Part shown: positions 4,268 to 63,363 of the stretch, piece by piece
Layout: the number at the start of each line of letters is the position of its first letter
Numbering within the stretch: the stretch's first letter is position 1
Assembly: GCA_026066175.1 (NCBI GenBank)
Contig: GCA_026066175.1_4721.2
Reading direction: 5' to 3' (one strand)
DNA length: 64,000 bases
DNA from: a phage
Translations under genes and position numbers: made by a program
The notes under the pieces: model-generated
What the model was told of the DNA's origin: nothing
The model's input: the letters and a program-made list of their open reading frames with translations, nothing else
Databases searched by the model: none

Positions 4268-4594
4268 TTAACTTATCGTCATGAATTCCGTAGGTGAGAA
4301 TTTCCAACCGTTTTCATTGAGAAGCGTGTTAAGTTTCGCTGCAACGATAAGCCATGCGTGCATGGCTGTCACATCGTATTGGCGATTAACACGGCGTTGG
4401 TTTTCGATATCGATTTGCTCCCGTTCGGTGATGTTTGGGTAGAGCGCGACGGCGCTGGGCTTCCCTAACGCATCACTCATTACCGCCTGACATTCACTGA
4501 TGATGTTATTGAGATGATAATTGTAAACCGTTCCACGCATAACACGATGACGGCATTCAATAATAGCGTCGTAAATAATTTCTCTTGTTGTCAT
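4268..4594 (-). CDS. hypothetical protein (108 aa)
   Basis: ORF in the minus-strand block, start 6 nt after the upstream stop. Confidence 0.55.
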   Translation of the reverse strand: MTTREIIYDAIIECRHRVMRGTVYNYHLNNIISECQAVMSDALGKPSAVALYPNITEREQIDIENQRRVNRQYDVTAMHAWLIVAAKLNTLLNENGWKFSPTEFMTIS

Positions 4595-4600
4595 GATCGA

Positions 4601-5002
4601 TTAAAACACACGTTCGTTTTTAGCACGGGCATCCATAACCAAATCGTAGATACCAGCTGTTCGTAAACATTCTTCGTAATAACGGTGCGTACCTTCCTCC
4701 GCCATCCACGATAACCCACGACTATCGGCAACAATAACCAGTTTGTTATTGTTGAATGCGCATACCACACGGTAAGTCGCATTGTTGTTTGGATCACGTG
4801 TAATCAGTTCGTAAACACCATTAACCGGTTTACTGAATTCACCGTTCAGCGGAATAAGTTCCGTTGTACCTTCAGCAAACGTTACATTGATTGATGCTGG
4901 CTCTTTAGCAATGACGGTGTATTCCACGTTGTGTTCTTTACTGGTCATGATACCGAAATAAGAACTTACTGGAGAACGTGGTACACTAAGAATATTAAAC
5001 AT
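4601..5002 (-). CDS. hypothetical protein (133 aa)
   Basis: ATG start; same operon block. Confidence 0.6.
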   Translation of the reverse strand: MFNILSVPRSPVSSYFGIMTSKEHNVEYTVIAKEPASINVTFAEGTTELIPLNGEFSKPVNGVYELITRDPNNNATYRVVCAFNNNKLVIVADSRGLSWMAEEGTHRYYEECLRTAGIYDLVMDARAKNERVF

Positions 5003-5065: not shown

Positions 5066-5635
5066 TTAGACGATGAGCGTCCAGGTGGTCAGTACACCGC
5101 TTGCGAATTCAAGCTTAAGACGTTTACCAATAAGCTGTTGTTGGATCATCTTTTCCGTGATCCGACGATCGTGTTGAACGGCTTTATCGAATGCCTCTTT
5201 TGCTTCGGCTTGATAAAAGTTCGTTTCTTCGTTCTCGTCGATATCTTCGAATGCATCATCGTCGATATCAGCAAGTTTTACACGGCCGTTTTCATCGGGT
5301 TGTTCGGCCGGTTCGTTGTCGTAAGGCGTGTCTTTTGTCGGTGCGACACGGTGCTGTAGTTCAACCTGGGTTAGCATCACTTCCATCTCACCGTCGATAG
5401 GGATGATGTCATCAGCACTACCGTTTTCGGTTAGCTCTCGACTTTCCAGTAACGTCGTAGTAACAGTGAACACCTCCTCGACAGGAACCTCATCATCGTC
5501 GATGGTGTTAACCGTACCGCTGGTCACTTCGGCAACAACCATCAAATCGAATGCGTGAGGGTCGCCGGGCATTTTGATCCCAGGAAGTTTGTTGAGATAC
5601 CAAGGATCAAGAATCATGATTTCGGGATTAAACAT
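5066..5635 (-). CDS. hypothetical acidic protein (189 aa)
   Basis: ATG start; D/E-rich product. Confidence 0.65.
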   Translation of the reverse strand: MFNPEIMILDPWYLNKLPGIKMPGDPHAFDLMVVAEVTSGTVNTIDDDEVPVEEVFTVTTTLLESRELTENGSADDIIPIDGEMEVMLTQVELQHRVAPTKDTPYDNEPAEQPDENGRVKLADIDDDAFEDIDENEETNFYQAEAKEAFDKAVQHDRRITEKMIQQQLIGKRLKLEFASGVLTTWTLIV

Positions 5636-5710
5636 CGTATTTACCTTTTTATGTTAGGTGGGTTGCGGATGGAAGAATCAATGCATAGTCTGATTTAAGT
5701 TTGTTAAGAC

Positions 5711-6544
5711 TTACTTAGCTTTCGGATTATACGGACTAACATGTTGTTGCATTCGTTGGATTGTTTCGTAGTACGGGTTATAATGAGTGAACATATTGTT
5801 GTATGGATGGTAGCCGTAAAGCGCATTTTGCCTTGCCGGTGAGAAACCTTTTTGAGAAGGACGATTTGAATTTACTGCGAGCACGTAGTAAACCAAATTT
5901 TGATGGTCGAATGTTCCTTCGTTTTTGAAGGTGTCAGCATAGGCGCTTACCGCAGGAGCAAGTCTATCACCATCGGTTGTAATGATCGTACCATCCGGGT
6001 AAACTTCTCGAACGATACACCATGTTCCGATGAGAACATCTTCGGGTGTCTTATTACTGTATCCGACTGTAACGGTAAGGTAAGTATCGAATCCTCCTGA
6101 GCGCTGCGGATGTCGATAAATTGGGCCAGTCGTTTCTGCTTTATCGGTTACGGTTTTTTCGTAAGGACACTTCTTGATTGCTTTGATGTAAATATCGGGA
6201 ATCTCTAATACCGCCTTATCAGGATGAATTCTAAAATGATTCTTGAGTAAGCCCAAAAGGTTGGTTGCTACCACGTCGTGAGGTAGTACCCAATAACTGG
6301 TAGGGGAGTCATCGCCGTCTCTCTTGGAGAAGATGACTGCCTTGTTATCGTCGTCTGGTAGACTGAAGAAAACGATTGACTCAATAGGCATAGCCAGCTC
6401 ACCACAACAGGGGTCAGCGGATAACACCCAATTGTATTTGTTGTCCGTTTCGTATAAATGTTCTGTTCTGTCGATACTACGATCCTTCAATTGGATGTAG
6501 CGTTCACGTTGTTTCTTGGTTAATTTACGGTAGATAGTGGTCAT
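5711..6544 (-). CDS. hypothetical protein, paralog family of 5711/6630/7431 genes (277 aa)
   Basis: N-terminus MTTIYRKL; shares VREVYPDGTIITT and PIYRHP...YLTVT segments with the 6630 gene product. Confidence 0.75.
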   Translation of the reverse strand: MTTIYRKLTKKQRERYIQLKDRSIDRTEHLYETDNKYNWVLSADPCCGELAMPIESIVFFSLPDDDNKAVIFSKRDGDDSPTSYWVLPHDVVATNLLGLLKNHFRIHPDKAVLEIPDIYIKAIKKCPYEKTVTDKAETTGPIYRHPQRSGGFDTYLTVTVGYSNKTPEDVLIGTWCIVREVYPDGTIITTDGDRLAPAVSAYADTFKNEGTFDHQNLVYYVLAVNSNRPSQKGFSPARQNALYGYHPYNNMFTHYNPYYETIQRMQQHVSPYNPKAK

Positions 6545-6588
6545 GTTAAGCTCCTTGATTACGGTAAGGATGATTTCGGTTTTGTGAT

Positions 6589-6617
6589 GATGGTAGGACC
6601 ACTTTGTTTAGGATCCT
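6589..6617 (-). terminator. imperfect hairpin GGTAGGACC...GGATCCTACC between paralog genes
   Basis: 7-9 bp stem in the intergenic gap. Confidence 0.3.
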
Positions 6618-6629
6618 ACCAGTACGGGA

Positions 6630-7403
6630 TTATTCATGATCAGTGTAGAAATGGTGAGGATAGCCGGAGTACGATCCTGCGTTACCGGCTATGGATTCTT
6701 TCTGGGAATCGACGACGAGCGCGTAGAACTGTCGGGAATTTGTTAACGTTGAGAAATAAGAGGAAAGGACTTTTTCGTTCAACGCATCGCACGGTAGACA
6801 GGTACGCCCACAGAACGTCGTAATACGGCCATCCGGATAGATCTCACGGATCATACGCCATTCACCGATATCAACCGGCGATGGCGCTGCTACACCACCT
6901 GTTATCGTTAAATAACGATCATACGTGGTATGACATTCTGGATGTACGTAAATTGGCTTATTGGCCTCAACTTCTTCAGGAGCATAGCGTCGACCGAGAA
7001 GTTCAATAACCTCCAGATAGATTGTAGGCAGATCGCAAAGAACCCCTTCCTCTTTACGTTTCTTCGTGATTCGAGGACGAACCTCATTGATAACGTAGGC
7101 GAGTTCATTCAGCGCTTCTTGCGCTGGTAGCACGAATAAACGGTCCGGTTTGTCGGACAAGTCTTCATTTACGTAAACGTAACAAACATCGTCTTTAGGC
7201 GCGTAGAAGAAGCGAGAGACCTTAAAGGTTTCCGTAGTACGATAACCGAGACGCGTTTGGTCCTGCACCAGAGAAAATATCCAGCGACGTCCTTCGTCCT
7301 GTTCAATGATATCATTGAACATCTTTGTTTGATCAGGAAGTTGATATTCTTCCTGTAATTTAGCAAGTGCTTCATTATCCAGTTTGGTGTAAACATCAGT
7401 CAT
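6630..7403 (-). CDS. hypothetical protein, paralog of 5711 gene product (257 aa)
   Basis: N-terminus MTDVYTKL; IREIYPDGRITT and PIYVHPECHTTYDRYLTITGG align to the paralog; Cys cluster CGRTCLPC. Confidence 0.75.
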   Translation of the reverse strand: MTDVYTKLDNEALAKLQEEYQLPDQTKMFNDIIEQDEGRRWIFSLVQDQTRLGYRTTETFKVSRFFYAPKDDVCYVYVNEDLSDKPDRLFVLPAQEALNELAYVINEVRPRITKKRKEEGVLCDLPTIYLEVIELLGRRYAPEEVEANKPIYVHPECHTTYDRYLTITGGVAAPSPVDIGEWRMIREIYPDGRITTFCGRTCLPCDALNEKVLSSYFSTLTNSRQFYALVVDSQKESIAGNAGSYSGYPHHFYTDHE

Positions 7404-38617: not shown

Positions 38618-40117
38618 ATGAGCGAACAAGAACAAAAACTCAAGAAGAAACTGCTCGGTATTCAATGTCGACACATCAGTTATAACGAAGCCAACGATGG
38701 CAGCAAGAACGATCTCATGATTGCAAAAGAGATCATGTTCTTCGATGACAACACACAAGCCACCAACCTGCGGTTCTTTGAAAACCACAAACGTCCGTTT
38801 TGGGTTACAGTTGAAAGCAAACGTAAGAACAAATATAAAAAGGAAAGCGAGAAGCTCTCAAACGTACGTCGTTATGAGGTACGCCAAAGCGAACTGGTTG
38901 AGAAAATCAGTTCGGTGCTTTATAAACGACGTGCTGACGATAACACCCGTTTACAACAGCTTGCGCGGAGTCCTTACCTCTATGGAACGGACGTTAGCGC
39001 CAGCTGCTATTTAAAAACCCAGTACAATACAAAATGGCCGGAATACGTTGATAAACTGCCTGCTTCTATCGCATGTTTCGATATCGAAACCGACGTTGTC
39101 CACGGGCACGGTAAGATCGTTTGTATGTCTATTACAATGGGCTACAACGCGATTCTTTGTTACACCCAGGACTTCGTTGGTCATATTCCGAATGCGATTG
39201 AGAAAACCCGTGAGAAGATTCGTTATTACCTGGCCGACCGTTTAAACACCAAAGAGGATCCTCACGCCTTTGAAAAATACCATTACGATATTCGCATTGT
39301 AGAAAGCCCTGCGCAAGCGGTGATTCAATGCATGCAGAAGGTGCACGAATGGCAGCCGGATTATCTCCTTGGCTGGAACATCGCGTTCGATATTCCGCGT
39401 ATGCTCCAGGCATTGCAGGACGAAGGTTATCGTCCCGAGGATGTTTTCTCCGATCCTCGCGTACCACCGAAATACCGTTTAGCACGCTGGGTACCACCTA
39501 AAACCGATAAGGTATCGGCATCAGGCCGTAAAACCAACCTTACCCTTGAGCAAACCTGGCCAATGTTTTATACGATGGCCACGTATCAGGTTATGGATGC
39601 GATGTGTGGTTATAAGTTCGTTCGTTTAGGAAGACCGGATGAAGGACGCTACTCACTCGATGCGGTGTTAGAGCGAAATAAATGCCATACGAAATTAAAA
39701 GCGATCCCAGGTACCGAAGGGTTCACGGAGCTCGCCTGGCACGAAGAGATGCAAACGAACCATCAAATCGACTACGGTGTATATAACCTTTGGGATAACC
39801 AAGGCATCGAGGCGTTGGACCAGAAAACAAAAGACTATTCGATGACCATCCCTATCCGTTTAGCAGCGTCGGATTTGAAAGATTTCAGTTCCAACCCTAA
39901 ACGTATCTGTGATAAACTTTTCTTCGTTTATCTCAACCGTGGGGAAGTCATGGGATGTACTGCTGATGACATGACGCAAGAGGAGGATAAATGGGTGATT
40001 TCACGTGCAGGGCATATCGTGACCTTGCCGTGCGATCTCATGGCGGATAACGGCATCCATCTCTTCTGGGATATGCCAAATCTAAGAAGCTATATTCGAT
40101 TATTTGTTGCGGATTAA
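38618..40117 (+). CDS. family-B DNA polymerase N-terminal/3-prime-5-prime exonuclease domain protein (499 aa)
   Basis: DEDDy motifs in PolB-like order and spacing: Exo I ACFDIETD (residues about 152-158), Exo II LLGWNIAFDIPRML (about 251-264), Exo III YSLDAV (about 345-350). No polymerase motifs A/B/C. Confidence 0.75.
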   Translation: MSEQEQKLKKKLLGIQCRHISYNEANDGSKNDLMIAKEIMFFDDNTQATNLRFFENHKRPFWVTVESKRKNKYKKESEKLSNVRRYEVRQSELVEKISSVLYKRRADDNTRLQQLARSPYLYGTDVSASCYLKTQYNTKWPEYVDKLPASIACFDIETDVVHGHGKIVCMSITMGYNAILCYTQDFVGHIPNAIEKTREKIRYYLADRLNTKEDPHAFEKYHYDIRIVESPAQAVIQCMQKVHEWQPDYLLGWNIAFDIPRMLQALQDEGYRPEDVFSDPRVPPKYRLARWVPPKTDKVSASGRKTNLTLEQTWPMFYTMATYQVMDAMCGYKFVRLGRPDEGRYSLDAVLERNKCHTKLKAIPGTEGFTELAWHEEMQTNHQIDYGVYNLWDNQGIEALDQKTKDYSMTIPIRLAASDLKDFSSNPKRICDKLFFVYLNRGEVMGCTADDMTQEEDKWVISRAGHIVTLPCDLMADNGIHLFWDMPNLRSYIRLFVAD

Positions 40118-40210
40118 CCTTCGTTCTGTAAAAGTTTACCGATGTATGGAAATTTCTGTGAGATACCAAAGGTACTCGATAAGTTTAGGAATTTCTGGAC
40201 GGAGGTAATT

Positions 40211-41347
40211 ATGTTGGAACATCTTGAGTGTTTGGACAATGAATACTTAAATTTCACCAATCGTCGTTATCGTATCTTCGAGGACGGTACCCTCTACGAT
40301 TATAAAGAGAATCGCAAAGTACCCGTCATCATCGAAGACAACAACTCTTACGTTATCATTGACTGGTATCGTGGAGTGGGTAAATACGAGCTGGGAATGA
40401 TCATACTTACGGCATTTGATCGAATCCATATCCCTAACTATCTCTACGACGAAATCGAATCTTTGTTTATTGACAACGATCCGACGAATTTCTCGTATAG
40501 TAACCACATCTATCGTTTCCGTAACGGTCCGTTAGCGGTGGAAGGGTATCCGGGGTACTACTACATCCCGTTTGCCACGTACTATGCGTTAAATGAACAA
40601 GGTGAATGTTTAAGTCTCTTGTCGGGGGAAGGTATAACGTGGACAATGACGCCACAGAACGGCACACGACGTCCAGGCTATCGATACAGAAAAGTAACAC
40701 CCGATAGTGGGTTCACAGCCCAACTGTATCGTCATCGTGCGTTGATGTTAACGTTCCGTCGTTATGATGCGAGCGTTGTAGAAATGACCGTTAATCACAA
40801 GAACGGGATTAAAGGCGATGATTGGCTGGATAACCTTGAATGGGCAACCTACAAGGAAAACAACAATCATGCGCGTATCAACGGCTTATGCGACGGTAAA
40901 GCAAAACCCGTTAAGATCTTTGATTACGTTCGTCACACCGAGCGTCAATTCAAAAGCATCGCTGAAGCAGAACGCGCTTATCCACACGTTGCAAAAGGAC
41001 GTTTCAAATGGTGGGTTGAGAATCCGCCGAAACGCATTCCAGAATGCAACCTGTACATTAAACATGCGTTCGATAACACCCCATGGCCAGAATGGAAACT
41101 GGGTGACGATCGTCGTATTGAGGATGTATCAGGTATTCCTATCATTGCACTGAACATGGTAACCGGCGAGAAACGAGTGTATCCGTCGGTTACTGCTGCA
41201 GGTAAAGATACGAAAACAAGTTGGATAACCGTAAGACGTCATTGCGATAGGCGTGTTGTTCCTGCGAAACAAGCCTGGTGCTTCCGTTATGTTGATGATG
41301 TCAAGAATATGCCGGAGTTAACCTCCCCACCAACAATCGAACAGTAA
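40211..41347 (+). mobile_element. HNH homing endonuclease ORF (379 aa from ATG 40211)
   Basis: GGAGGT SD 7 nt upstream; HNH core LYRHRALMLTF...VNHKNGIKGDDWLDNLEWATYKENNNHA (nt about 40763-40886). Confidence 0.8.
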
Positions 41348-41349
41348 CG

Positions 41350-41830
41350 ATAACAGGTCCCCCTACTTGTAATGAGTGGGTGAACTCTCTTTAATTGCTG
41401 GAAACCTTTAATGCCCCTCCACACCACAACGCAATCCGAAAGGGTAAACGTGACGGTTGTCGAAAGACAGAAAGAAGTTGGAGGGGATCACCTAAGCTGA
41501 AATAAAAGCCGTTACTTTCTGGATATGGGAAGAGTCTAACGGTGCTAAGGGTTCTGCTAGAAATAAGGTAACCGTAGCAGCGAAGACCCTACGGACTGTC
41601 GTGACCAACTCACTGAGTTGGCGTGGTGAAACACGGACAGACTACGGGTAACGTTCAACGACCATCCGGTTGCGCGGAGTAGGAGAAATAGGATGTTCTC
41701 TGAAAAGGGAGAAGTCGGTCGAGGTGTTGTAGAAACACCGTTGCTTTGCTTCGCAAACATAAGACAGGCTAAGATATGGTCTATATTAAATGTAATACTA
41801 TGATGTATAGAATTTAATGGCTCGATATTA
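41350..41830 (+). ncRNA. candidate group I intron catalytic core (or degenerate remnant)
   Basis: About 500 nt without ORF; R-like GTTCAACGACCATCC (41653-41667) and S-like AAGATATGGTCTA (41771-41783) can form P7 (GACCA/TGGTC) with a compensatory change relative to the canonical GACTA/TAGTC; Q/P-like GCAATCCGAAAGGG at 41431-41444; several local hairpins. Confidence 0.4.
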
Positions 41831-41859
41831 GCAGTTCATATCCAAATGGGCAGATCCTT

Positions 41860-42075
41860 TTGAATCTATCCAGAGCGTGCGTATTTCGTGAGCTTTCACG
41901 GATTGAGGGCGTCTCTGATTATCAATTCAGGAAGCTGGGTATTAACTTCATCACGGGCGGTAAAACGAATGCGGTTGACTTCTGCCGAATCGTTCATAAA
42001 GCCCCGTCGATGTTCGAACTGTTAGCGCATTTTGACGCGACACGTCCGAAGGAAGCGCCAAAGACCCTTGATTGA
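41860..42075 (+). CDS. small ORF (71 aa, TTG start); possibly the 3-prime exon of the upstream gene rather than an independent gene
   Basis: Open frame begins at 41818 right after the intron-like core; followed by an A11 run and a bidirectional terminator. Confidence 0.25.
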   Translation: MNLSRACVFRELSRIEGVSDYQFRKLGINFITGGKTNAVDFCRIVHKAPSMFELLAHFDATRPKEAPKTLD

Positions 42076-42100
42076 AAAAAAAAAAGAAACGCATGCGAAG

Positions 42101-42131
42101 CCCCTCCCCTGGCGGAAGCCGGAGGGAGGGG
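42101..42131. terminator. hairpin CCCCTCCCCTGGC-GGAA-GCCGGAGGGAGGGG with flanking A11/T-rich tracts
   Basis: Variant of the conserved hairpin; A-run 42076-42086 gives a U-tract for the minus-strand cluster, TTTTATGCG on the plus side. Confidence 0.6.
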
Positions 42132-42148
42132 TGGAGGTTTTATGCGTT

Positions 42149-42634
42149 TTATGCGCGTTCGCTGCTAACCATGACTTTATAATCAGCGTCGGTTAAGAAG
42201 ATAGACAGGAAGCCATGTTCTTTGCAAAGCTCACTAAGGACCTCGGTAATGATTTCATTGATCAATGGTTTATTTGCGAGAGCGTAGATATACCCATCAG
42301 TAAAAGAAAGGGCATGTTTAATCATCGGCTCATGAGACGCCAGGACAAGGATCACATGGTGTTGACCATCATCGGTAACGACCGCTTGCGTCGACACAAA
42401 GAAACCAGTGAAGCCGCATTGGTAACTGGCTTTAGGGATATATAAATCACCTAAAGCTTCGTCACGCGCTTTCATGTGGGTTTCAGGCGTGATGCTACTA
42501 AGCTGATCTTCGGCGATATCCAGAGTCTCTTCAACGGTTTTCAGAATGGCTTCTTTGAAATCCTTGCGGTAGACCTGGATAATTTCACGGTCGTTGATGT
42601 AATCGCCGGATTCGATGGTAAAGTTCAAGTTCAT
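42149..42634 (-). CDS. small hypothetical protein, tandem array member (161 aa)
   Basis: GGAG SD followed by an A-run before ATG; C-terminal EHGFLSIFLTDADYKV strand similar to the family motif. Confidence 0.7.
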   Translation of the reverse strand: MNLNFTIESGDYINDREIIQVYRKDFKEAILKTVEETLDIAEDQLSSITPETHMKARDEALGDLYIPKASYQCGFTGFFVSTQAVVTDDGQHHVILVLASHEPMIKHALSFTDGYIYALANKPLINEIITEVLSELCKEHGFLSIFLTDADYKVMVSSERA

Positions 42635-42687
42635 TTTTTTTTACTCCTGATTTATGTGTCGATTGATTGACGTATTAATTTATGTTT

Positions 42688-42706
42688 GAAGGTGCTGTTC
42701 ACCTTC
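42688..42706 (-). terminator. hairpin GAAGGTG-CTGTT-CACCTTC
   Basis: Directly after the stop of the 42708 gene; near-identical 24-mer also at 18872-18895. Confidence 0.4.
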
Positions 42707-42707
42707 G

Positions 42708-43139
42708 TTAGATATCATCCGGTGTATATTCGATGTTGTAAACGACGTAACGGTCTGACGCATGAACGACGAGCTCGACGGGGAAATCATAATGCTTGGT
42801 TTTGTCTCGAACATGCTGGGTAAAGAGATCCGTATAACGGATTAAGTCTTCCACGGTATACTCAGAAGGGAAGAAGACATCGATGGTTATTGACTTTTCA
42901 TAGAGGCGTATGACCAGCTTATCCAGAAGGTTGGCATATCGGTTACACGGGGCGACGTCCAGAAGACAGAAATCACCGTCTTCTGCGTCTCGTGGTATCC
43001 ACATCGTGGTATCTTGTAACGACGTTTCAAGGATCTCGAAAATGCAGTCTGCTGTAAGTCTTAGTTTATCTGTTATTTCACGGTTAGGTGAATAATGGTC
43101 ACGAATGCTTTTCACTGCTTCTTTGATGGAGAAAGTCAT
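42708..43139 (-). CDS. small hypothetical protein, tandem array member (143 aa)
   Basis: MTFSIK N-terminus, ILETSLQDTTMW, KSITIDVFFP, HYDFPVELVVH. Confidence 0.75.
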   Translation of the reverse strand: MTFSIKEAVKSIRDHYSPNREITDKLRLTADCIFEILETSLQDTTMWIPRDAEDGDFCLLDVAPCNRYANLLDKLVIRLYEKSITIDVFFPSEYTVEDLIRYTDLFTQHVRDKTKHYDFPVELVVHASDRYVVYNIEYTPDDI

Positions 43140-43153
43140 CGTTGATGCTCCTT

Positions 43154-43663
43154 TTAAAAGATATCAAGCCATGAGGATGGGGAAACCAGTTCGCTTGTGA
43201 AACATTGCGTACCGTCGGTATTTACCGCATGGGTAAGTTTATAAGCCTTAACGGCCGGTTTACTGCCGATGGTGAGGACGGTTGTCATGTCGAGCCATTC
43301 GGCACGATGGAGAAATGCCATATCAGCCACCTTCTGTAGACCATTTGCTTCAAAATCGATACGGTCGTTAAGCGGCATCAATCGGATTTCAATACGTTCT
43401 TTGAAGAGTTGAAACGTTACTGAAAACTCATGCGGTTTGGCATTAAGACATAAAGGCCCTCGATGGAAGTGTTGGTATGCTTCATTCTTGTTATGCTCGA
43501 AAACCCAGCAGTTGTGGACAAGAGAAGCGTCTTGTAACGAGGATTCCAGGTAGTCAAATACCTTGTTTATTGTTTGCTCGAGCAGAGACGCTAATGAATC
43601 TGGATATCCAGCAAATGCTGCTTCGGCGATCGATTTTACTGAAATGGTATTGTTCTGGTTCAT
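43154..43663 (-). CDS. small hypothetical protein, tandem array member (about 169 aa)
   Basis: Listed start 43690 is TTG; ATG at 43663 has an AAGGAA SD; YLESSLQDASLVHNCW matches the family. Confidence 0.7.
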   Translation of the reverse strand: MNQNNTISVKSIAEAAFAGYPDSLASLLEQTINKVFDYLESSLQDASLVHNCWVFEHNKNEAYQHFHRGPLCLNAKPHEFSVTFQLFKERIEIRLMPLNDRIDFEANGLQKVADMAFLHRAEWLDMTTVLTIGSKPAVKAYKLTHAVNTDGTQCFTSELVSPSSWLDIF

Positions 43664-43667
43664 CTCT

Positions 43668-44120
43668 TTATTCCTTGTCGGATTCGTCAATGTATTTGGT
43701 GTCGTAAGACATATGCTGGATTAATTTTCTAGGCTCGATGAAAATACGACACGAGATAAATACATCGGGATCATACTGCTCTACACAACGCCCGAAAACC
43801 AGCTTTGCAGTCTGGCGCATCAAGGCTATTTCCCGATCATTCATCTCATTATCGAATTCGATGTTTATCGTGATTTTATCAGGAAATAAATAGATAGAGT
43901 AATTGCCACTAATACCACCATCATCAAAACGATAATCGTTGTGGTAATGGTGAAGCTTACCGTCGTGTGTCGTCTGGTACCATCCGATGATACTATCAAG
44001 TCCCACACCCAAGCGGCGTTCGAATGCCCAATTAATAACATCCTCGACAACGGATGCGGGCGTGGGACCATTGAATAATCTATCCAGACGCTTTTTCATC
44101 GATTTGGTTTTCACGTTCAT
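43668..44120 (-). CDS. small hypothetical protein, tandem array member (150 aa)
   Basis: ATG start; C-terminal QYDPDVFISCRIF. Confidence 0.7.
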   Translation of the reverse strand: MNVKTKSMKKRLDRLFNGPTPASVVEDVINWAFERRLGVGLDSIIGWYQTTHDGKLHHYHNDYRFDDGGISGNYSIYLFPDKITINIEFDNEMNDREIALMRQTAKLVFGRCVEQYDPDVFISCRIFIEPRKLIQHMSYDTKYIDESDKE

Positions 44121-44150
44121 TGTTTCTTTTCCTGTTATAGTCGGTATACA

Positions 44151-44184
44151 GCCCTTCCCCGGCCTTGATGGCTAGGGAAGGGGC
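44151..44184 (-). terminator. imperfect GC hairpin GCCCTTCCCCGGCC-TTGAT-GGCTAGGGAAGGGGC
   Basis: Intergenic within the array. Confidence 0.4.
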
Positions 44185-44196
44185 TATGTTACGTTG

Positions 44197-44598
44197 TTAC
44201 GCTTCGCAATCAGCTGAAGATGTTGCACGCTTCTTGCCATCAAAATGCCAAAGTAGACACGCTGGGAAGAGGCAAACATCTAGAGTGCAAGGGATGTCGT
44301 ATTTTTCTTCCAGTTCGTAAAGACAATCCGCGAGCTGCTTTCGTGCATTCTCATCGTGTCGTAATGCGATATGACCTAATCGTTGTTGGTCGTTCTTTAC
44401 ATATACCTCGAAAAGTATGTGTTGTTGAAAAGCATTGATTCGTACCCCTTCAAGTATATCGGTGTCGAGCATGCGAGTAAAACTCATTGCTGTCGACGAT
44501 GTCGAGGTTTCTTGTTTAACCAGATCGATCATGGTGGGAATATACGAATGGTCGATGTTATCGACGACCGCTTTAGCGACGGAATCTGCAATGTTCAT
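44197..44598 (-). CDS. small hypothetical protein, tandem array member (133 aa)
   Basis: C-terminal KYDIPCTLDVCLF. Confidence 0.7.
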   Translation of the reverse strand: MNIADSVAKAVVDNIDHSYIPTMIDLVKQETSTSSTAMSFTRMLDTDILEGVRINAFQQHILFEVYVKNDQQRLGHIALRHDENARKQLADCLYELEEKYDIPCTLDVCLFPACLLWHFDGKKRATSSADCEA

Positions 44599-44628
44599 CT
44601 TTAATCCTTAATGTTATCGTTACCGTAT

Positions 44629-45048
44629 TTAGGTGGTTTTCGGGTTATGTTCGTATTTGACGATCGTTACTGGAATATTGCAACGGTCGAAACAGTTGAA
44701 TGAAATTGTTGTTGGGATATCGAACGCCACGACTCTGGCTTTAATATACCCGATTAAGTCGTCTTCGATAAATAAAACCTCAGGCTTATCGTTAGCATCG
44801 ACCCAAACACCAACACAGAGCTTGTCGTTATTGGTCAGTACGTTGATAGTGTATGTACTGTCGTCCATGTGAATATGCGATCTTCTACAAGAATTGAGTA
44901 GAGCAGTCGGACTATTCGCAGTCGCCCGCAACTGGTTGCTGGTCTGGATCGTGTTCAGGACATCACGTATGATGTTATCTACCAACGTAAATAGTTTCTC
45001 AGTAACGTTCTCTTTTAGAAGCTGCATCAAAGAAACAGTTGTGGTCAT
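44629..45048 (-). CDS. small hypothetical protein, tandem array member (139 aa)
   Basis: C-terminal AFDIPTTISF. Confidence 0.7.
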   Translation of the reverse strand: MTTTVSLMQLLKENVTEKLFTLVDNIIRDVLNTIQTSNQLRATANSPTALLNSCRRSHIHMDDSTYTINVLTNNDKLCVGVWVDANDKPEVLFIEDDLIGYIKARVVAFDIPTTISFNCFDRCNIPVTIVKYEHNPKTT

Positions 45049-45809
45049 TTACGATCCTCTTTAACAACAGATGTTACCCACGACGTGATGGCTGGATGAA
45101 AACAGAGGGTGAAGGTGACGGATGTTTTGTATCTCGATGCGCAGTTTCGCAGTCGTGTTTCGAAGATTCTTTTCGATTCAAGATCGTTGTTGTCGATAAC
45201 AGACAAACCGCTTACTATCCCAATAACGTTGATGCCTTTGTCTGTCTGAGTTGTGACGATGCGCCGTAACGGTTCATACTCGTAGCTGTATACGCACCCA
45301 TTCTTAGGACCGGGTGTCGAACTGGCTGCACGGGCGACGGCAACTAACATATCGACAATACGATCGATTCGAGTCCTTGCGTTGTCACTGCCGGTCTCGG
45401 TTGAGATTTCTTTCGTATCGAATATTATTACTCCGCTATCGTTAGATCCCGTGGGGAAACACATAGCTAAACGAATAGGATATTCGTACATTGAGGTTCT
45501 TTTTTGGAAAATTTCAGATAGATGTTGTTCATACGTCAACACATCAACATCATCTAGAGATGGGGGTAATACAGCCTGAATAATAACGCCGTCATCGGTT
45601 AAACCGATTCCCAGGAGACGTAGTTTATTGTCGCTTGGTACTGTTTTCTGGAGATATGCTTTACCGTTAACGATATCGGTATCCCACGTATCTTCACATA
45701 ACAAATTTTCAAACCGATCGAAAATATGGTCTACGGTATCGATGAGTTCTGTGACACGTCGTTGTTGGTTGGTTTCAATCAATTGTTGGATTCTTTCTTT
45801 GATAGACAT
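45045..45809 (-). CDS. hypothetical protein, tandem array member (254 aa)
   Basis: ATGA overlap with the downstream gene; MYEYPIRLAMCF. Confidence 0.75.
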   Translation of the reverse strand: MSIKERIQQLIETNQQRRVTELIDTVDHIFDRFENLLCEDTWDTDIVNGKAYLQKTVPSDNKLRLLGIGLTDDGVIIQAVLPPSLDDVDVLTYEQHLSEIFQKRTSMYEYPIRLAMCFPTGSNDSGVIIFDTKEISTETGSDNARTRIDRIVDMLVAVARAASSTPGPKNGCVYSYEYEPLRRIVTTQTDKGINVIGIVSGLSVIDNNDLESKRIFETRLRNCASRYKTSVTFTLCFHPAITSWVTSVVKEDRK

Positions 45810-45811
45810 GA

Positions 45812-46264
45812 TTACTCCTTAGTTCCTTCTTTGTCGGCTTTATACTCCACACAGTGGAATTCACATTCATCGATAAACCTGAGTGTTACTGTAATAGGGA
45901 AATCGCGCGGCGAAGCGGATTCCTTAAATGCGCTATCAGCAACATCAGATAACCGACGTATGGTATTTCCTCCTTTCGCCACGAACGGGAATTTAATGTT
46001 AATAAGGATACGGTGTTTGTAAATAGTAAAGACGACAGTGCTGTCGAAATGCACACCAGTTAAAGTCATTGTTGGGATGCGTTTTACGACGGAGAAATAT
46101 GTCCCGTCAATATCGCTACTTCCCACTGACCATTCATCGGAATTGCGCAGACTTCCCTTGAGGAGTTCAACGCTTTGCGTGACCACCTCAGCAACCTGTG
46201 CGACGTAGGTGTCTTTGTGCGTATCGAACAGTTCATTTACGCTGGATTTGAATGAAAAAGCCAT
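45812..46264 (-). CDS. small hypothetical protein, tandem array member (150 aa)
   Basis: MAFSFK N-terminus, ILINIKFPF, PRDFPITVTLRF. Confidence 0.75.
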   Translation of the reverse strand: MAFSFKSSVNELFDTHKDTYVAQVAEVVTQSVELLKGSLRNSDEWSVGSSDIDGTYFSVVKRIPTMTLTGVHFDSTVVFTIYKHRILINIKFPFVAKGGNTIRRLSDVADSAFKESASPRDFPITVTLRFIDECEFHCVEYKADKEGTKE

Positions 46265-46308
46265 TGCCGTGATCCTACCTTTTCTTTATCTGTGATAAAA
46301 TTGTTTAT

Positions 46309-46330
46309 GTGTTCCCTCTTACGGGAACAC
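46309..46330 (-). terminator. hairpin GTGTTCCC-TCTTAC-GGGAACAC
   Basis: Perfect 8-bp stem after the stop of the 46338 gene. Confidence 0.4.
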
Positions 46331-46337
46331 GTCATTT

Positions 46338-46847
46338 TTAACTATCGGTTTTGCTGTCCTCTGGATCGTAGCGGAATTCGAATAGTTCCGATCCGTCGTG
46401 TCCTGCTATTGTCAACATAATCGGCATGTCGAATCCTCGAGCGCGCGAATGGAGACATTGCGCTAATTTTATTTTCGCATACGCTGCTATTTCGTTGGTT
46501 GCTATACGAGACTCGCCTGAGATGCTGAGTATGATATCAATACTAACAAGGTCGTCGTGTAGCGCAAAACGCCAGCGATCGATACGGGGATTATCGGCAG
46601 CAAGCGATTCGTTTACAAGATAGACTTTTTCATCGAACGACACGGCAGGACTCCAGCATTGTTCGTTCAACAGACATGTCTGAAGTCTTGAAATCGTCAG
46701 ATCGATGATGTCCCAGCACGCAACCAGCGTCATATCGGATACGAGATTGAGAAGTTCGTGTACACGATCTTTTATTTTTAATGCCTCTCCTTGCGGACGT
46801 CCGCAAATACCGTGTGCGTCAACTTTCTTATTAACTTCGTTACTCAT
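46338..46847 (-). CDS. small hypothetical protein, tandem array member (about 169 aa)
   Basis: ATG at 46847 preferred over GTG at 46853; C-terminal GFDMPIMLTIAGHD. Confidence 0.7.
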   Translation of the reverse strand: MSNEVNKKVDAHGICGRPQGEALKIKDRVHELLNLVSDMTLVACWDIIDLTISRLQTCLLNEQCWSPAVSFDEKVYLVNESLAADNPRIDRWRFALHDDLVSIDIILSISGESRIATNEIAAYAKIKLAQCLHSRARGFDMPIMLTIAGHDGSELFEFRYDPEDSKTDS

Positions 46848-46912
46848 AATCACCTCTTTTTAATCTAAATGTTCGTTGGGATTGTTTACCATTTGGCGTC
46901 AGCTTAAAACGA

Positions 46913-47518
46913 TCACATGCTTCCCAGCACGTTCATAAGCATAGAACCCATACGGGAGCTCAAATTCGACGCGCCGGTGTATTCAGCCAGTTGGCGATAG
47001 ACCTCTTCTGGGCTGTCTTCTTCGCCGTCAGCGTTGATATAGACCGAAAAAGAGAGCAGGTCAGTATCCACGTTGACCAACAAACGTCGTTCATTACGAT
47101 CCTTCAGGTTTTCGGTAATCGCAGCTTTCAACAGATCCAATGCGTTAATTGCGCGCAGGATATCTGTATCCGGGCTCTCTAGGGTGATTTTACCTTTCAG
47201 ATCGATGTTGACTTTGGTGACTACCGGACTGAGATCGACTTTAACGTGTTTGTCGGGATTCATGCGAATAACCGCGCGGTCGATATCCGAACCGAAGAAC
47301 GCGATGGTTGGGCCCAACGCTTCGTTGTTCGGATCCATGTTTTCATCCATTCCCGCCTGCAAGAAACGTTCTACGTTATCCAATTCACGATAAACGGACT
47401 CTTCGATTTCCTTCAGGTAGTTTGCTGCGGTTTCATGTTCTTTACGTAGCTCGTCTTTAAGGAGCTGTACGGTGGTTTCACTGGAACGAATGCTGTTAGC
47501 GAATTGGGTGATAGACAT
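46913..47518 (-). CDS. hypothetical protein in array (201 aa)
   Basis: ATG start; family membership uncertain. Confidence 0.7.
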   Translation of the reverse strand: MSITQFANSIRSSETTVQLLKDELRKEHETAANYLKEIEESVYRELDNVERFLQAGMDENMDPNNEALGPTIAFFGSDIDRAVIRMNPDKHVKVDLSPVVTKVNIDLKGKITLESPDTDILRAINALDLLKAAITENLKDRNERRLLVNVDTDLLSFSVYINADGEEDSPEEVYRQLAEYTGASNLSSRMGSMLMNVLGSM

Positions 47519-60573: not shown

Positions 60574-63363
60574 TTACTTTTTGAGCGCTTTAAGTTCTTC
60601 TTCCAACGCTTCCACTTTCGTCGTAAGCTTCTGTACTTGTTTGATTAATGGAACCACCAAACGTTCGTACATAACACCTTCAGCAACCAACCCATTAGAA
60701 GAAACGATGGCGGGGTCATCTTCTTCGGTTGCATCACGCCAGTGCACGTATTGTGGTGCTATCTCACCGACCTCTTCGGCAATCAACCCATACCAACCCC
60801 AATCCTTGTTGTCCGCTTCGCAGGTAGAACGATACCAAACAGGACGCATCTCCAATACTTTATCCGCTTGTTCATCCGTGATATTCTCGATATCTTTCTT
60901 ATAGCGACGTGACGACGTTGAACGGAACACATTGTTGATCCCAGCAACAGGACTGATATACATATTAGCCCCGCTGGTTGTAGTGCTAATGTCCCATACC
61001 GCAAATCCGCCGTTACTCCCATTTTTTACTACCAACGTATTGGCAATAATGTCCAGGTTATTGTCGTACCCGGTTAACTGGTTTTCCGTTACATAACTGG
61101 ATAGGTTAACCGAGTAGTTCTTACTGTTATAACAACGACGCCATCCTGGGCTGTTGGTGCTGCCGTTATAGTTGTCGTAGCTATAAATGAACTCGGAGTT
61201 GGTTTTCGCCCCACTGACGGAAGACGTGGTAGCGGTTGTAACACGGATGGTGTAGTTTGTCATCCCGAAGCTAACGACCTCGATAACAGCGCCAGCCAGA
61301 GGGATGATCCCGCATTTGGTTTCACTGTCTGGGATGTATGCGCTATCGGCAGCAGCGAAGGAGCAACGTGCGACCCAAGCACGAGTGTTGAAGGCTCCAT
61401 GGTTTTGCAGTAATGTGATAAACGAGGACGTTGTAATCGAGCTGTTATTATCACCGGTGATCAACCAGCCGGTTGGACATGCAGTTGCACCAACGTTTTT
61501 CGCTGTTAGCGTGATGTTCTGTGATCCGTCGAAGGCTACGCCGCTAATAGTACGCGCAGTCTGTAGCTTCGTCGCCGTTGCTGCGTTCCCTGACGTGTTC
61601 TGATTACCTGCTTTGTTCACGCCTGGTAAATCAATGTTGGCGGTTCCATCGAAGCTGACGCCGCCTATTGTTCTTGCTGTAGCGAGTTTCGTTGCTGTGG
61701 TTGCAGCATTACCAACCTTTAACCATTCGCCCCATGGACCATCGATGCCGTTCCATGATGCTGTTAAACTACGTACGTAAATATTTCCGGTACGTACAGT
61801 GTAACGTTGCGTTCCACCGAACTGTCCAGCTGGGAGCACTTCGATATAACCTACCGCGTTTGCTTCAGGGAAATTGTGGGCAACATCAGCATTCGTTGAT
61901 GTTTGTTTAGACCAAATACCTACGGACTCCTCTACCGGACCGTAGGTATCCAGATTTGCGTCGGTGGGGAGCTGTCCTCGAAAACGTCGGAATAATGATG
62001 CTGTTAACCCCAACGTTGTTTGCATTCCTTGAACGCTTGACTGCGATAAAAGCGCCCGCGCTGTCGACGTAATGGCAGCTAAAGCAACCTTGTCGGCTCC
62101 GGTGAAAAATGGGAATTTGTTCGCCGAGGTCGTTAAGCCTGAAAGGGCTGTTAGTAATGCGTTAAGGGGTTGTTTTCCGGCTAACGCGTTAGTTATCGTC
62201 GTTGCGAAATTAGGATCGTTGCCTAAAGCTTGAGCCAGCTCATTAAGCGTATTTAGCGCTTCTGGAGACGAGTCAATCAGCGACGCGATAGCACGCATTA
62301 CAAATTCCGTGTTGGCAATCTGTTGACTGCTATCATTCTCTGCAGCCGTTGGCGCTGCTGGGATACCGGTGAATACAGGGTTATTAAGATCTGCCTTGAG
62401 GGCGATGAGACGTCTAAGCGCTTCAACATCGACTCTCAGGTTTTCCCATCCGACGAGATAACCTTCATCGGTTGTGTGATAACGGTTGTACCAAAAATCG
62501 CCATTAACACCGAAAAAGAATATTCCCTTCTCTTCGTATTGTGGGCCAGAACTGTTCCGCGATGAGCTAATGTATTTTATTTCGATAAGGCCGTTGAATA
62601 CCACTCCTGGGATAATTTTGTCGTTTCCATGCAATTGTGATACCTGGTACGCCCCCGGCGTTGCGGTTCTAATCCACGTTAAGAATTCCGATGTTCCAGC
62701 GTTACCGCTAAAATGCTTGGCGTCGGTGAGTATCGCACCAAAACCGAACATACCGGGTAAAGCAACTCGTCCATCGGTACGGTCACGAATATCTGTCGCA
62801 ACAACGGGCAATTGTTTACGAACGTCATTAACCGCTTTAGGTGTTGCTGATTTTGTCTCGTCGTCGCTCTCAGTATCATTGCTCAGGATGGTCAGTCCTC
62901 GAGTATCTGTGGTCGCATCAGGAAGAAACGCGTTATCCAACACCTTAAGCTGTATTGCATCCGTGTTACTAACAGCAACATACACCTGGCAGTTAAGAAC
63001 GCTGGTTGCGCCTTCGGTGGGCACAGGCTTATATCTTTCTGGTGCGCTGCAGACGGCGACCAGAACACCTTGATCGTCATACAGACCGATCTCACGTACC
63101 CAGAACCCACCTTGACTGGTGGGAATAATGCCTTCAACAATAATCCGGGTTGTGTCGTCAACATCAATGCGGATGTTGGAAACTTCCCCACGATAAACTT
63201 CGTGTATAAGTGCCGTTTGGCTAGCATCGGGGGTTGGTGTAGAGCCGTTACTGTCACCAACGGCAAAATGCGTGATTTTTAGTTTCTCACCGTCAGGAAG
63301 TAATGCTGCGGTGATACGTTCTGCGCCTTTATCGGTAATAACCGTTTTATATGTTGTACTCAT
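60574..63363 (-). CDS. tail fibre protein with C-terminal S74-type intramolecular chaperone domain (929 aa)
   Basis: N-terminus MSTTYKTVITDKGAERITAAL...ITHFAVGDSNG...EVYRGEV...VEGIIPTSQGGFWVREIGLYD matches the phage tail-fibre N-terminal domain; C-terminus SSRRYKKDIENI...LEMRPVWYR...YGLIAEEVGEIAPQYV...MYERLVVPLIKQVQKL matches the self-cleaving chaperone domain. Confidence 0.9.
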   Translation of the reverse strand: MSTTYKTVITDKGAERITAALLPDGEKLKITHFAVGDSNGSTPTPDASQTALIHEVYRGEVSNIRIDVDDTTRIIVEGIIPTSQGGFWVREIGLYDDQGVLVAVCSAPERYKPVPTEGATSVLNCQVYVAVSNTDAIQLKVLDNAFLPDATTDTRGLTILSNDTESDDETKSATPKAVNDVRKQLPVVATDIRDRTDGRVALPGMFGFGAILTDAKHFSGNAGTSEFLTWIRTATPGAYQVSQLHGNDKIIPGVVFNGLIEIKYISSSRNSSGPQYEEKGIFFFGVNGDFWYNRYHTTDEGYLVGWENLRVDVEALRRLIALKADLNNPVFTGIPAAPTAAENDSSQQIANTEFVMRAIASLIDSSPEALNTLNELAQALGNDPNFATTITNALAGKQPLNALLTALSGLTTSANKFPFFTGADKVALAAITSTARALLSQSSVQGMQTTLGLTASLFRRFRGQLPTDANLDTYGPVEESVGIWSKQTSTNADVAHNFPEANAVGYIEVLPAGQFGGTQRYTVRTGNIYVRSLTASWNGIDGPWGEWLKVGNAATTATKLATARTIGGVSFDGTANIDLPGVNKAGNQNTSGNAATATKLQTARTISGVAFDGSQNITLTAKNVGATACPTGWLITGDNNSSITTSSFITLLQNHGAFNTRAWVARCSFAAADSAYIPDSETKCGIIPLAGAVIEVVSFGMTNYTIRVTTATTSSVSGAKTNSEFIYSYDNYNGSTNSPGWRRCYNSKNYSVNLSSYVTENQLTGYDNNLDIIANTLVVKNGSNGGFAVWDISTTTSGANMYISPVAGINNVFRSTSSRRYKKDIENITDEQADKVLEMRPVWYRSTCEADNKDWGWYGLIAEEVGEIAPQYVHWRDATEEDDPAIVSSNGLVAEGVMYERLVVPLIKQVQKLTTKVEALEEELKALKK

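Follow-up and report, generated by a model that had tools for sequence, protein, structure and literature searches.

The 64,000-nucleotide stretch of phage DNA analyzed here (GenBank assembly GCA_026066175.1, contig GCA_026066175.1_4721.2; hereafter the window) contains, between positions 38618 and 42075, an open reading frame (ORF) with the exonuclease domain of a family-B DNA polymerase (PolB), followed by an ORF for an HNH endonuclease, a non-coding segment, and a short open frame. This arrangement raises the question of whether the polymerase is naturally split, with its catalytic part encoded elsewhere, or whether an intron or homing-endonuclease element has invaded the locus. The initial annotation of the window posed these as alternatives. 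Our analysis points to both being true at once. We consider it highly probable that 38618-42075 constitutes one gene, which encodes the N-terminal subunit of the divergent, two-subunit PolB of a chimallivirus related to Escherichia phage Goslar, that this gene is interrupted by a mobile group I intron carrying an HNH endonuclease gene, and that the C-terminal subunit is encoded separately. The N-terminal subunit comprises the N-terminal domain and the 3'-5' exonuclease and extends into the first part of the palm, which carries motif A. The intron is inserted after the codon for Asp499 and before that for Leu500; the catalytic Asp501 of motif A follows Asp499 by two residues.

The 499-amino acid ORF (38618-40117 including the stop codon) contains the sequences FDIETD, GWNIAFDIP, and YSLDAV, and its product is a PolB N-terminal and exonuclease region in family and fold, as had been proposed from its motifs. 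The match of this product to Pfam DNA_pol_B_exo1 was weak (E=0.023), and both the profile phrog_3011 and a structure search with Foldseek agree with the assignment. In alignments of 91-92 homologs, D155 and E157 of Exo I and N254 of Exo II are invariant, and D258 of Exo II is conserved in at least 90% of the sequences. YSLDAV had been read as Exo III. The same alignments showed instead that it is a conserved block ahead of an invariant Y-x3-D (Y389/D393, in YNLWD), which would be Exo III by the usual pattern of PolB motifs. The structure search used the AlphaFold model of P0001, an intronless homolog that is 96% identical to the predicted spliced product and is not the window protein itself. 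This model had a predicted local distance difference test score (pLDDT) of 87.9, and its top matches in the PDB were RB69 and T4 gp43 (E~1e-12, probability 1.0, approximately 455 aligned columns of targets of approximately 900 residues). Model confidence was low at residues 460-583, as would be expected if this part of the palm folded against a partner.

No palm motif had been recognized at this locus. This is correct for the 499-amino acid ORF taken alone and, for motifs B and C, for the window as a whole, where a six-frame search with regular expressions returned motif A at 41824 and otherwise only chance matches. It is not correct for motif A, which is encoded in the downstream frame as DISSSYPN (41824-41844) and, together with LFVAD, straddles the proposed splice junction. 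Translation of the downstream frame, open from 41818, gives W-L-D-I-S-S-S-Y-P-N. When U40114 is joined to C41821, directly after G41820, the result is a 583-amino acid protein reading ...LFVAD/LDISSSYPN... (the slash marks the junction), in which the last codon of exon 1 is GAU (Asp499) and the first codon of exon 2 is CUC (Leu500). The spliced RNA would read GCGGAU/CUCGAU, with flanks UUGCGGAU/CUCGAUAUU as derived from the proposed junction, and the tryptic peptide spanning the junction of the spliced product would be LFVADLDISSSYPNGQILLNLSR. The junction is unique because a shift of one base in either direction alters the invariant Asp499 or Leu500. It also fits the rule for group I introns, with U as the last base of the exon and G as the last base of the intron.

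Removal of the intron restores an uninterrupted frame that is conserved in P0001, in the DNA encoding it (locus L002), and in phrog_3011. P0001 is 583 amino acids long, is encoded on a contig of 237,273 bp, and was found by database search to cover 100% of the spliced product. The two proteins are colinear across the junction (...RSYIRLFVADLDISSSYPNGQ...). Comparison with a related phage lacking the insert had been suggested as a check, and L002 provides it: the gene is contiguous there (...GTTGCAGAC/CTTGACATTAGC...), and the intronless target site of the L002 type reads ...TTCGTTGCAGAC/CTTGACATTAGC.... The profile phrog_3011 ('DNA polymerase', 576 positions) was matched by exon 1 at positions 4-494 (E=2.5e-149) and by exon 2 at positions 495-571 (E=2.9e-18). 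Likewise, a tblastn search with gp44 of phage SPN3US aligned to exon 1 at 38651-40060 (E=1.8e-57) and to exon 2 at 41824-42033 (E=8e-06). Residues D499, D501, Y506, and P507 are invariant in the homolog alignments, and motif A is carried by all 91 homologs.

The downstream coding sequence had been described as a short open frame followed by a terminator. The frame does continue to 42075 and a hairpin does follow it, but the frame is exon 2, and its conserved coding begins at 41821, exactly at the 3' splice site and without a start codon, not at the TTG at 41860. We compared exon 2 with its counterpart in Escherichia phage vB_EcoM_Goslar, a nucleus-forming jumbo phage (Goslarvirus) that is 87.8% identical at the nucleotide level over 4.7 kb around the gene. 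There are 52 nucleotide differences over 84 codons and just seven amino acid changes; of the 68 codons at the start of the exon, 28 differ, with a single residue changed. This pattern indicates that exon 2 is under strong purifying selection, and therefore that the frame is translated in phages that contain the intron.

The segment between the two exons includes approximately 470 nt of structured non-coding RNA (41348-41820), close to the 500 nt initially noted. It matched the Rfam family Intron_gpI (RF00028) at 41278-41801 over the whole model with 43.2 bits (E=5.2e-9), and the corresponding Goslar intron matched with 44.7 bits (E=1.5e-9). The candidate guide sequence (Table 1) places a G41357.U40114 wobble at the splice site in P1, and A41355-G41356 could pair with C41821-U41822 of exon 2 to form a P10 of 2 bp. 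GUC(C) is found immediately 5' of P2 in all relatives, and relatives whose introns lack an ORF have the same GUCC 10-60 nt past the 5' splice site. The guide also covaries with the exon: L062 has GCUGAU paired with GUCAGC and a 6-bp P10, and L071 has GGGGAU paired with GUCCC. Two other candidate guides were rejected. The candidate at 40123 (GUUC, part of the 25 nt at the start of the intron that Goslar shares) gives 4 bp, no P10, and a position unlike that in the ORF-less relatives. GUUUG at 40230 gives 5 bp and a 5-bp P10, but it falls within the endonuclease ORF and lacks conservation in Goslar.

The ribozyme core includes P2 (41362-67/41375-80), P3 (41385-91/41705-11), and a P4-P6 domain with a large P5 extension of approximately 150 nt. 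P7 (41660-64, GACCA; 41777-81, UGGUC) and J8/7 (AAGAUAU) were assigned by inspection, as were two possible hairpins (UCCG/CGGA and GGAGAA/UUCUCU) in an insert of 39-40 nt between P7 and P3' (41665-41704). Two hairpins at this position would resemble the insert of subgroup IA introns, which are typical of phages. One of these P7.1/P7.2-like hairpins is backed by RNAalifold (columns 345-379); folding of the single sequence was not significant. Covariation was judged by RNAalifold and pair counting on 12 related introns from the same site. Without Rfam input, RNAalifold recovered P2, P3, P4, P5, P6, and one P7.1-type hairpin, and 23 of its 31 pairs showed compensatory changes. Paired cells made up 92.3% of the total compared with 72% after shuffling of columns (none of 500 shuffles reached the observed value) and 40-53% when partners were slid by 1-3 columns. 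This formal count covers helices P2 to P7.1; P7, P8, and P9 were left out since MAFFT misaligns the window and Goslar rows at P8-P7'. The core, with conserved P3-P7 and J8/7, is 91% identical to that of Goslar. The structural tests, the Rfam gathering score excepted, thus indicate that the insert is a group I intron, and we predict that it is self-splicing. The Rfam match, the exact U-to-G junction, the intronless allele, and the covariation all favor the invading-intron half of the initial annotation.

To place this intron among relatives we used a sample of 79 related loci from IMG/VR. At 15 of these the gene is interrupted at the motif-A Asp codons, 11 times after Asp499 (including Goslar and two Goslar-like contigs) and four times after Asp501, two codons later (L042, L043, L066, and L070). 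The inserts are either 297-450 nt long without an ORF or approximately 1.5-1.8 kb long, in which case an ORF precedes the core on its 5' side. An Rfam group I match was obtained for 14 of the 15 interrupted loci (L071 being the exception), with scores of 57 to 91.8 bits in the same-site relatives. Further group I introns are present at codon 467/468 in L066 (5330-5764, 86.7 bits), which has two introns, and in L079 (5435-6642, 57.6 bits). Separately, L082 has a break of approximately 210 nt near Exo I (4454-4666, codons 161/167) with no Rfam match.

These comparisons bear on a different explanation, in which a free-standing homing endonuclease has caused fission of the gene, no RNA is spliced, and the 499-amino acid protein, the HNH protein, and a protein of 71-84 amino acids are made separately, with the polymerase pieces reassembling, a model that has been put forward for genes 43A/43B of the Aeromonas phages 25 and 44RR. 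There are precedents for this: phages of this family already produce their polymerase as separate polypeptides (PMC5694885), and a split gene 43 with a seg-type endonuclease has been documented (PMC2988022). The 499-amino acid ORF also has its own stop codon. Against fission, a covarying group I ribozyme is located exactly between the pieces, the boundaries follow the U and G rule, and the guide covaries with the exon. Exon 2 coding starts right after G41820 with neither a start codon nor a Shine-Dalgarno sequence, and initiation at TTG 41860 would drop motif A. In addition, the ORF-less introns at the same site in relatives are not explained by insertion of an endonuclease gene. We therefore judge fission without splicing to be very improbable.

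Several observations weigh against a spliced gene. The 43.2 bits scored by the window intron are below the curated gathering score of 50, and a scan of the whole window at the Rfam gathering threshold returned no matches; the low score is probably due to large peripheral insertions. P1 has just 4 bp, P10 has just 2 bp, and P1 closes a loop of 1.24 kb. Local folds of the P2, P7.1/7.2, and P9 segments were not significantly above shuffled sequences. Finally, the gene for the partner subunit is not within the 64-kb window, and its existence is taken from related phages such as Goslar. The sub-threshold score and the short P1 pairing would also be consistent with a decayed intron remnant that no longer splices, leaving a truncated N-terminal subunit without motif A or a phage that uses another polymerase. 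Opposed to this are the strong purifying selection on exon 2 in two intron-containing lineages, the high identity of the core to that of Goslar with its key helices intact, the family-wide invariance of the motif-A residues, and the fact that Goslar, with the same structure, is a viable isolated phage. We see very little chance that the intron is such a remnant. Least credible of all is that an intein or an artefact of assembly accounts for the interruption: active sites of polymerases are targets of inteins as well, but the insert is out of frame, with a TAA as its first codon, exons in different frames, and many stops, which refutes protein splicing; a Pfam scan found no intein domains; and the same structure occurs in the independently sequenced Goslar, in L006, and in other contigs.

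Within the spliced-gene reading, the ORF in the intron is the HNH endonuclease that had been predicted. It matched Pfam HNH_3 (PF13392, 25.8 bits, cut-off 24.8) and NUMOD1 (PF07453, 31.6 bits, cut-off 22.8), and the PHROG scan returned HNH endonuclease families. The direct match to the I-HmuI structure 1U3E was weak (E=0.012). The likelier start is the ATG at 40211, giving 378 amino acids, with GGAGG at 40201-40205 five bases upstream. The protein is 70% identical to Goslar gp069 and 43% identical to the endonuclease of L005. The ORF stops 10 nt ahead of the guide sequence. Because the guide is 3' of the ORF and has the corresponding position in ORF-less relatives, the endonuclease gene is placed in the P1 loop, between the 5' splice site and the guide. 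L005, L062, and L071 share this arrangement, and L1 is one known location of endonuclease genes in group I introns. The activity and specificity of the protein are predictions. The intronless target in L002 differs from the window at four of the last 18 positions upstream and two of the first six positions downstream, all synonymous. As a separate observation, the first 25 nt of the intron (40115-40139; 5158-5182 in L001, the RefSeq Goslar record) are identical between the window and Goslar, and similarity falls sharply at the endonuclease region. Exchange of endonuclease genes may have had a boundary here, or these nucleotides may have a function in the P1 loop.

Table 1. Positions of the exons, the predicted intron and its parts, and the hairpin that follows the gene, in window coordinates.
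Feature	Position	Strand	Details
Exon 1, PolB N-terminal subunit	38618..40114	+	Codons 1-499, to invariant Asp499; last base U40114
Group I intron (predicted)	40115..41820	+	1706 nt; in-frame TAA at 40115-40117; omega-G 41820
HNH/NUMOD1 homing-endonuclease ORF	40142..41347	+	401 amino acids; Pfam, PHROG, weak 1U3E match
Internal guide sequence GUCC (candidate)	41357..41360	+	Pairs with exon 1 GGAU (40111-40114), forming P1
Ribozyme core	41362..41781	+	P2-P8; Rfam alignment and RNAalifold
P9 hairpin (AUAUUAAAU/AUUUAAUG) and omega-G 41820	41784..41820	+	Fold and junction
Exon 2	41821..42075	+	Codons 500-583 and stop; Leu500-Asp501, motif A, then ~70 amino acids
GC-rich hairpin between convergent genes	42086..42150		Flanked by A-runs and U-runs

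The other half of the initial annotation, a naturally split polymerase, is supported by comparison with phages related to phiKZ. These have a 'split subunit DNA polymerase', consisting of gp18 and gp44 in SPN3US (PMC5105663, PMC5694885), and the split was first recognized in phage OBP (Cornelissen et al. 2012, as cited in PMC5105663 and PMC5694885). SPN3US gp44 (594 amino acids), which matches both exons, is a homolog of the spliced protein. SPN3US gp18 (759 amino acids) carries motif C (...VVSDTDS...). Its homologs occur in 302 phage records, and the one in Goslar is at 174356-176461. The gp18-type subunit of Goslar, gp244 (717 amino acids), matched Pfam PF20286 (divDNApol, 'Divergent Family B DNA polymerase', E=2.4e-204) and contains KLDNNSLSG, which is similar to motif B, and VLSDTDS. 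Its gene is approximately 95 kb from the N-terminal subunit gene, and the break between the two proteins is approximately 80 residues past motif A. In the window itself, PHROG and Pfam scans of 25 distinct large ORFs did not find a C-terminal subunit, and tblastn searches of the 64 kb with SPN3US gp18 and Goslar gp244 gave no match. As evidence against its reading of the locus, the initial annotation had named a full-length PolB with its own exonuclease domain elsewhere and homologs that are stand-alone exonucleases. We found instead that gp244 has no match to an exonuclease domain and that motif A is present throughout the homologs. The polymerase thus appears to be naturally bipartite, and the intron, which is inside the N-terminal subunit gene, did not bring about the split.

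Goslar has the same layout as the window: gp068, annotated as a 'DNA polymerase' of 499 amino acids, is followed by gp069, a 'NUMOD1 domain protein', then by approximately 800 bp without annotation, and then by genes on the opposite strand. In the RefSeq record (L001, NC_048170), both the intron (5158-6919) and the 84-codon exon 2 with motif A (6920-7174) are unannotated. Phages whose exons are approximately 96-97% identical to one another have three alleles of this gene, one without an intron (L002), one with a Goslar-type intron (L004 and L006), and one with a different intron (L005), the endonuclease of which is just 42-43% identical. Between the window lineage and the Goslar group, exon 1 is approximately 90% identical and the core 91%, and the endonuclease is 69% identical in nucleotides and 70% in amino acids. 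We considered horizontal transfer of the ribozyme and rejected it; because the identity of the core is about that of exon 1, vertical inheritance is sufficient if the endonuclease gene evolves fast. All intron-containing alleles have the same 18-28 nt upstream of the insertion site, where the intronless allele differs at several synonymous positions. At the start of exon 2, adjoining the insertion site, a run of three Ser codons differs synonymously between the window and Goslar in the use of the AGY and TCN families (window 41827-41838, ATT AGC AGT TCA; Goslar L004, ATA TCT TCA AGC). This recoding is suggestive of either co-conversion tracts from a divergent donor or evolution of the target site.

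Based on these results we propose the following mechanism. The primary transcript would fold such that GGAU of exon 1 and the guide GUCC, located 1.24 kb downstream, form base pairs. The core, with exogenous guanosine, would cut after U40114 and ligate this base to C41821, past omega-G41820, restoring the 583-amino acid frame. On unspliced RNA, ribosomes would be halted by the in-frame TAA that is the first codon of the intron, and the endonuclease would be translated from its own Shine-Dalgarno sequence and ATG. The endonuclease would then nick or cut intronless alleles in co-infecting relatives, with repair copying the intron into them (homing). The mature N-terminal subunit would presumably assemble with the separate C-terminal subunit, which provides motifs B and C and the thumb. 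Because the Asp residues of motif A are encoded across the splice junction, production of the polymerase would depend on ribozyme activity.

Introns of this general kind are present in the Bacillus phages SPO1, SP82, and phi-e (I-HmuI) and Bastille (I-BasI) and in cyanophage Pf-WMP3 (I-PfoP3I), where a group I intron with an HNH ORF likewise interrupts a DNA polymerase gene at conserved catalytic codons. In those phages the host gene encodes a family-A polymerase. By contrast, the host gene in the window belongs to a nucleus-forming jumbo phage and encodes one subunit, the N-terminal one, of a divergent family-B enzyme that is split; the endonuclease ORF occupies the P1 loop, with the entire core downstream of it; and splicing and cleavage are predicted. 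Similar cores with much more divergent ORFs have been described for the polymerase introns of HMU phages (Goodrich-Blair and Shub 1994, cited in PMC11620839), and the window and Goslar show the same pattern, with the ORF far less conserved than the core. In the chimallivirus PhiPA3, the intron endonuclease gp210 in an RNA polymerase gene disables the gene of a relative (Birkholz et al. 2024, PMC11620839). As in that system, an essential polymerase gene of a Chimalliviridae phage contains a mobile intron that encodes a homing endonuclease, and close relatives with the intron (window, Goslar, L005) coexist with others that lack it (L002). The window differs in that the target is the N-terminal subunit of the DNA polymerase instead of an RNA polymerase subunit and that the phage infects E. 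coli. SPN3US gp44 and most of its homologs are uninterrupted, unlike the homologous gene in the window. In the Aeromonas T4-like phages 25 and 44RR, the polymerase is split into 43A and 43B with a seg-type endonuclease gene or an untranslated spacer between them (Petrov et al. 2010, via PMC2988022). These are also two-polypeptide PolB-type enzymes with a homing endonuclease gene at the break. However, their pieces are not joined as RNA, whereas here the interruption would be removed by splicing and the protein is split at another place.

Conceptually there is nothing new in this locus, as phage polymerase introns with HNH endonucleases and the phiKZ-type split are both established. In the literature we found no description of an intron within the gene for the DNA polymerase of Goslar or of any chimallivirus. 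The result means that the annotated structure of an essential replication gene needs correction in a phage lineage that is widely used as a model, and it indicates that chimallivirus polymerase genes are recurrently colonized at two codons by introns both with and without endonuclease genes. The presence of intron-plus and intron-minus alleles in near-identical phages provides a system for testing homing and interference competition in the phage nucleus. The motif-A Asp codons might be a family-wide homing hotspot, with several lineages of introns and endonucleases competing for it, in view of the three alleles and the two adjacent sites, and the window HNH protein might, by analogy with PhiPA3 gp210, act as a weapon that enters the phage nucleus of a co-infecting relative and disables its intronless polymerase gene. 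We offer this as a tentative idea that is more likely wrong than right. If it were true, Goslar-type phages would be an E. coli model of intron-mediated viral competition.

The hairpin downstream of exon 2 is predicted to be stable on both strands, with a folding free energy (dG) of -40.9 kcal/mol (z -6.2) on the plus strand and -29.7 kcal/mol (z -4.1) on the minus strand. It is probably a bidirectional intrinsic terminator. A simple terminator scanner did not list it, as its loop and tail do not satisfy the rules of that program. Downstream of the polymerase gene on the minus strand is a tandem array of approximately 10 small ORFs (133-254 amino acids) arranged back to back (42149-47518). A few of these have weak pairwise similarity to each other (blastp E~1e-4), and the array occurs in Goslar and L002 too, as hypothetical proteins. 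Other ORFs in the window are in keeping with a phage of the Goslar type and encode a DnaB-like helicase, a phiKZ-type RNA polymerase beta subunit, a tail tube protein, and phiKZ internal head proteins. A 509-amino acid ORF with a TTG start on the plus strand (247-1776) had no PHROG or Pfam match, and the G+C content of this region (0.50) is above that of the rest of the window. On the minus strand, a 929-amino acid protein (60574-63363) has mosaic matches to dozens of PHROG tail-fibre families in N-terminal (residues 1-180), middle, and C-terminal modules, a pattern that is typical of a modular receptor-binding protein.

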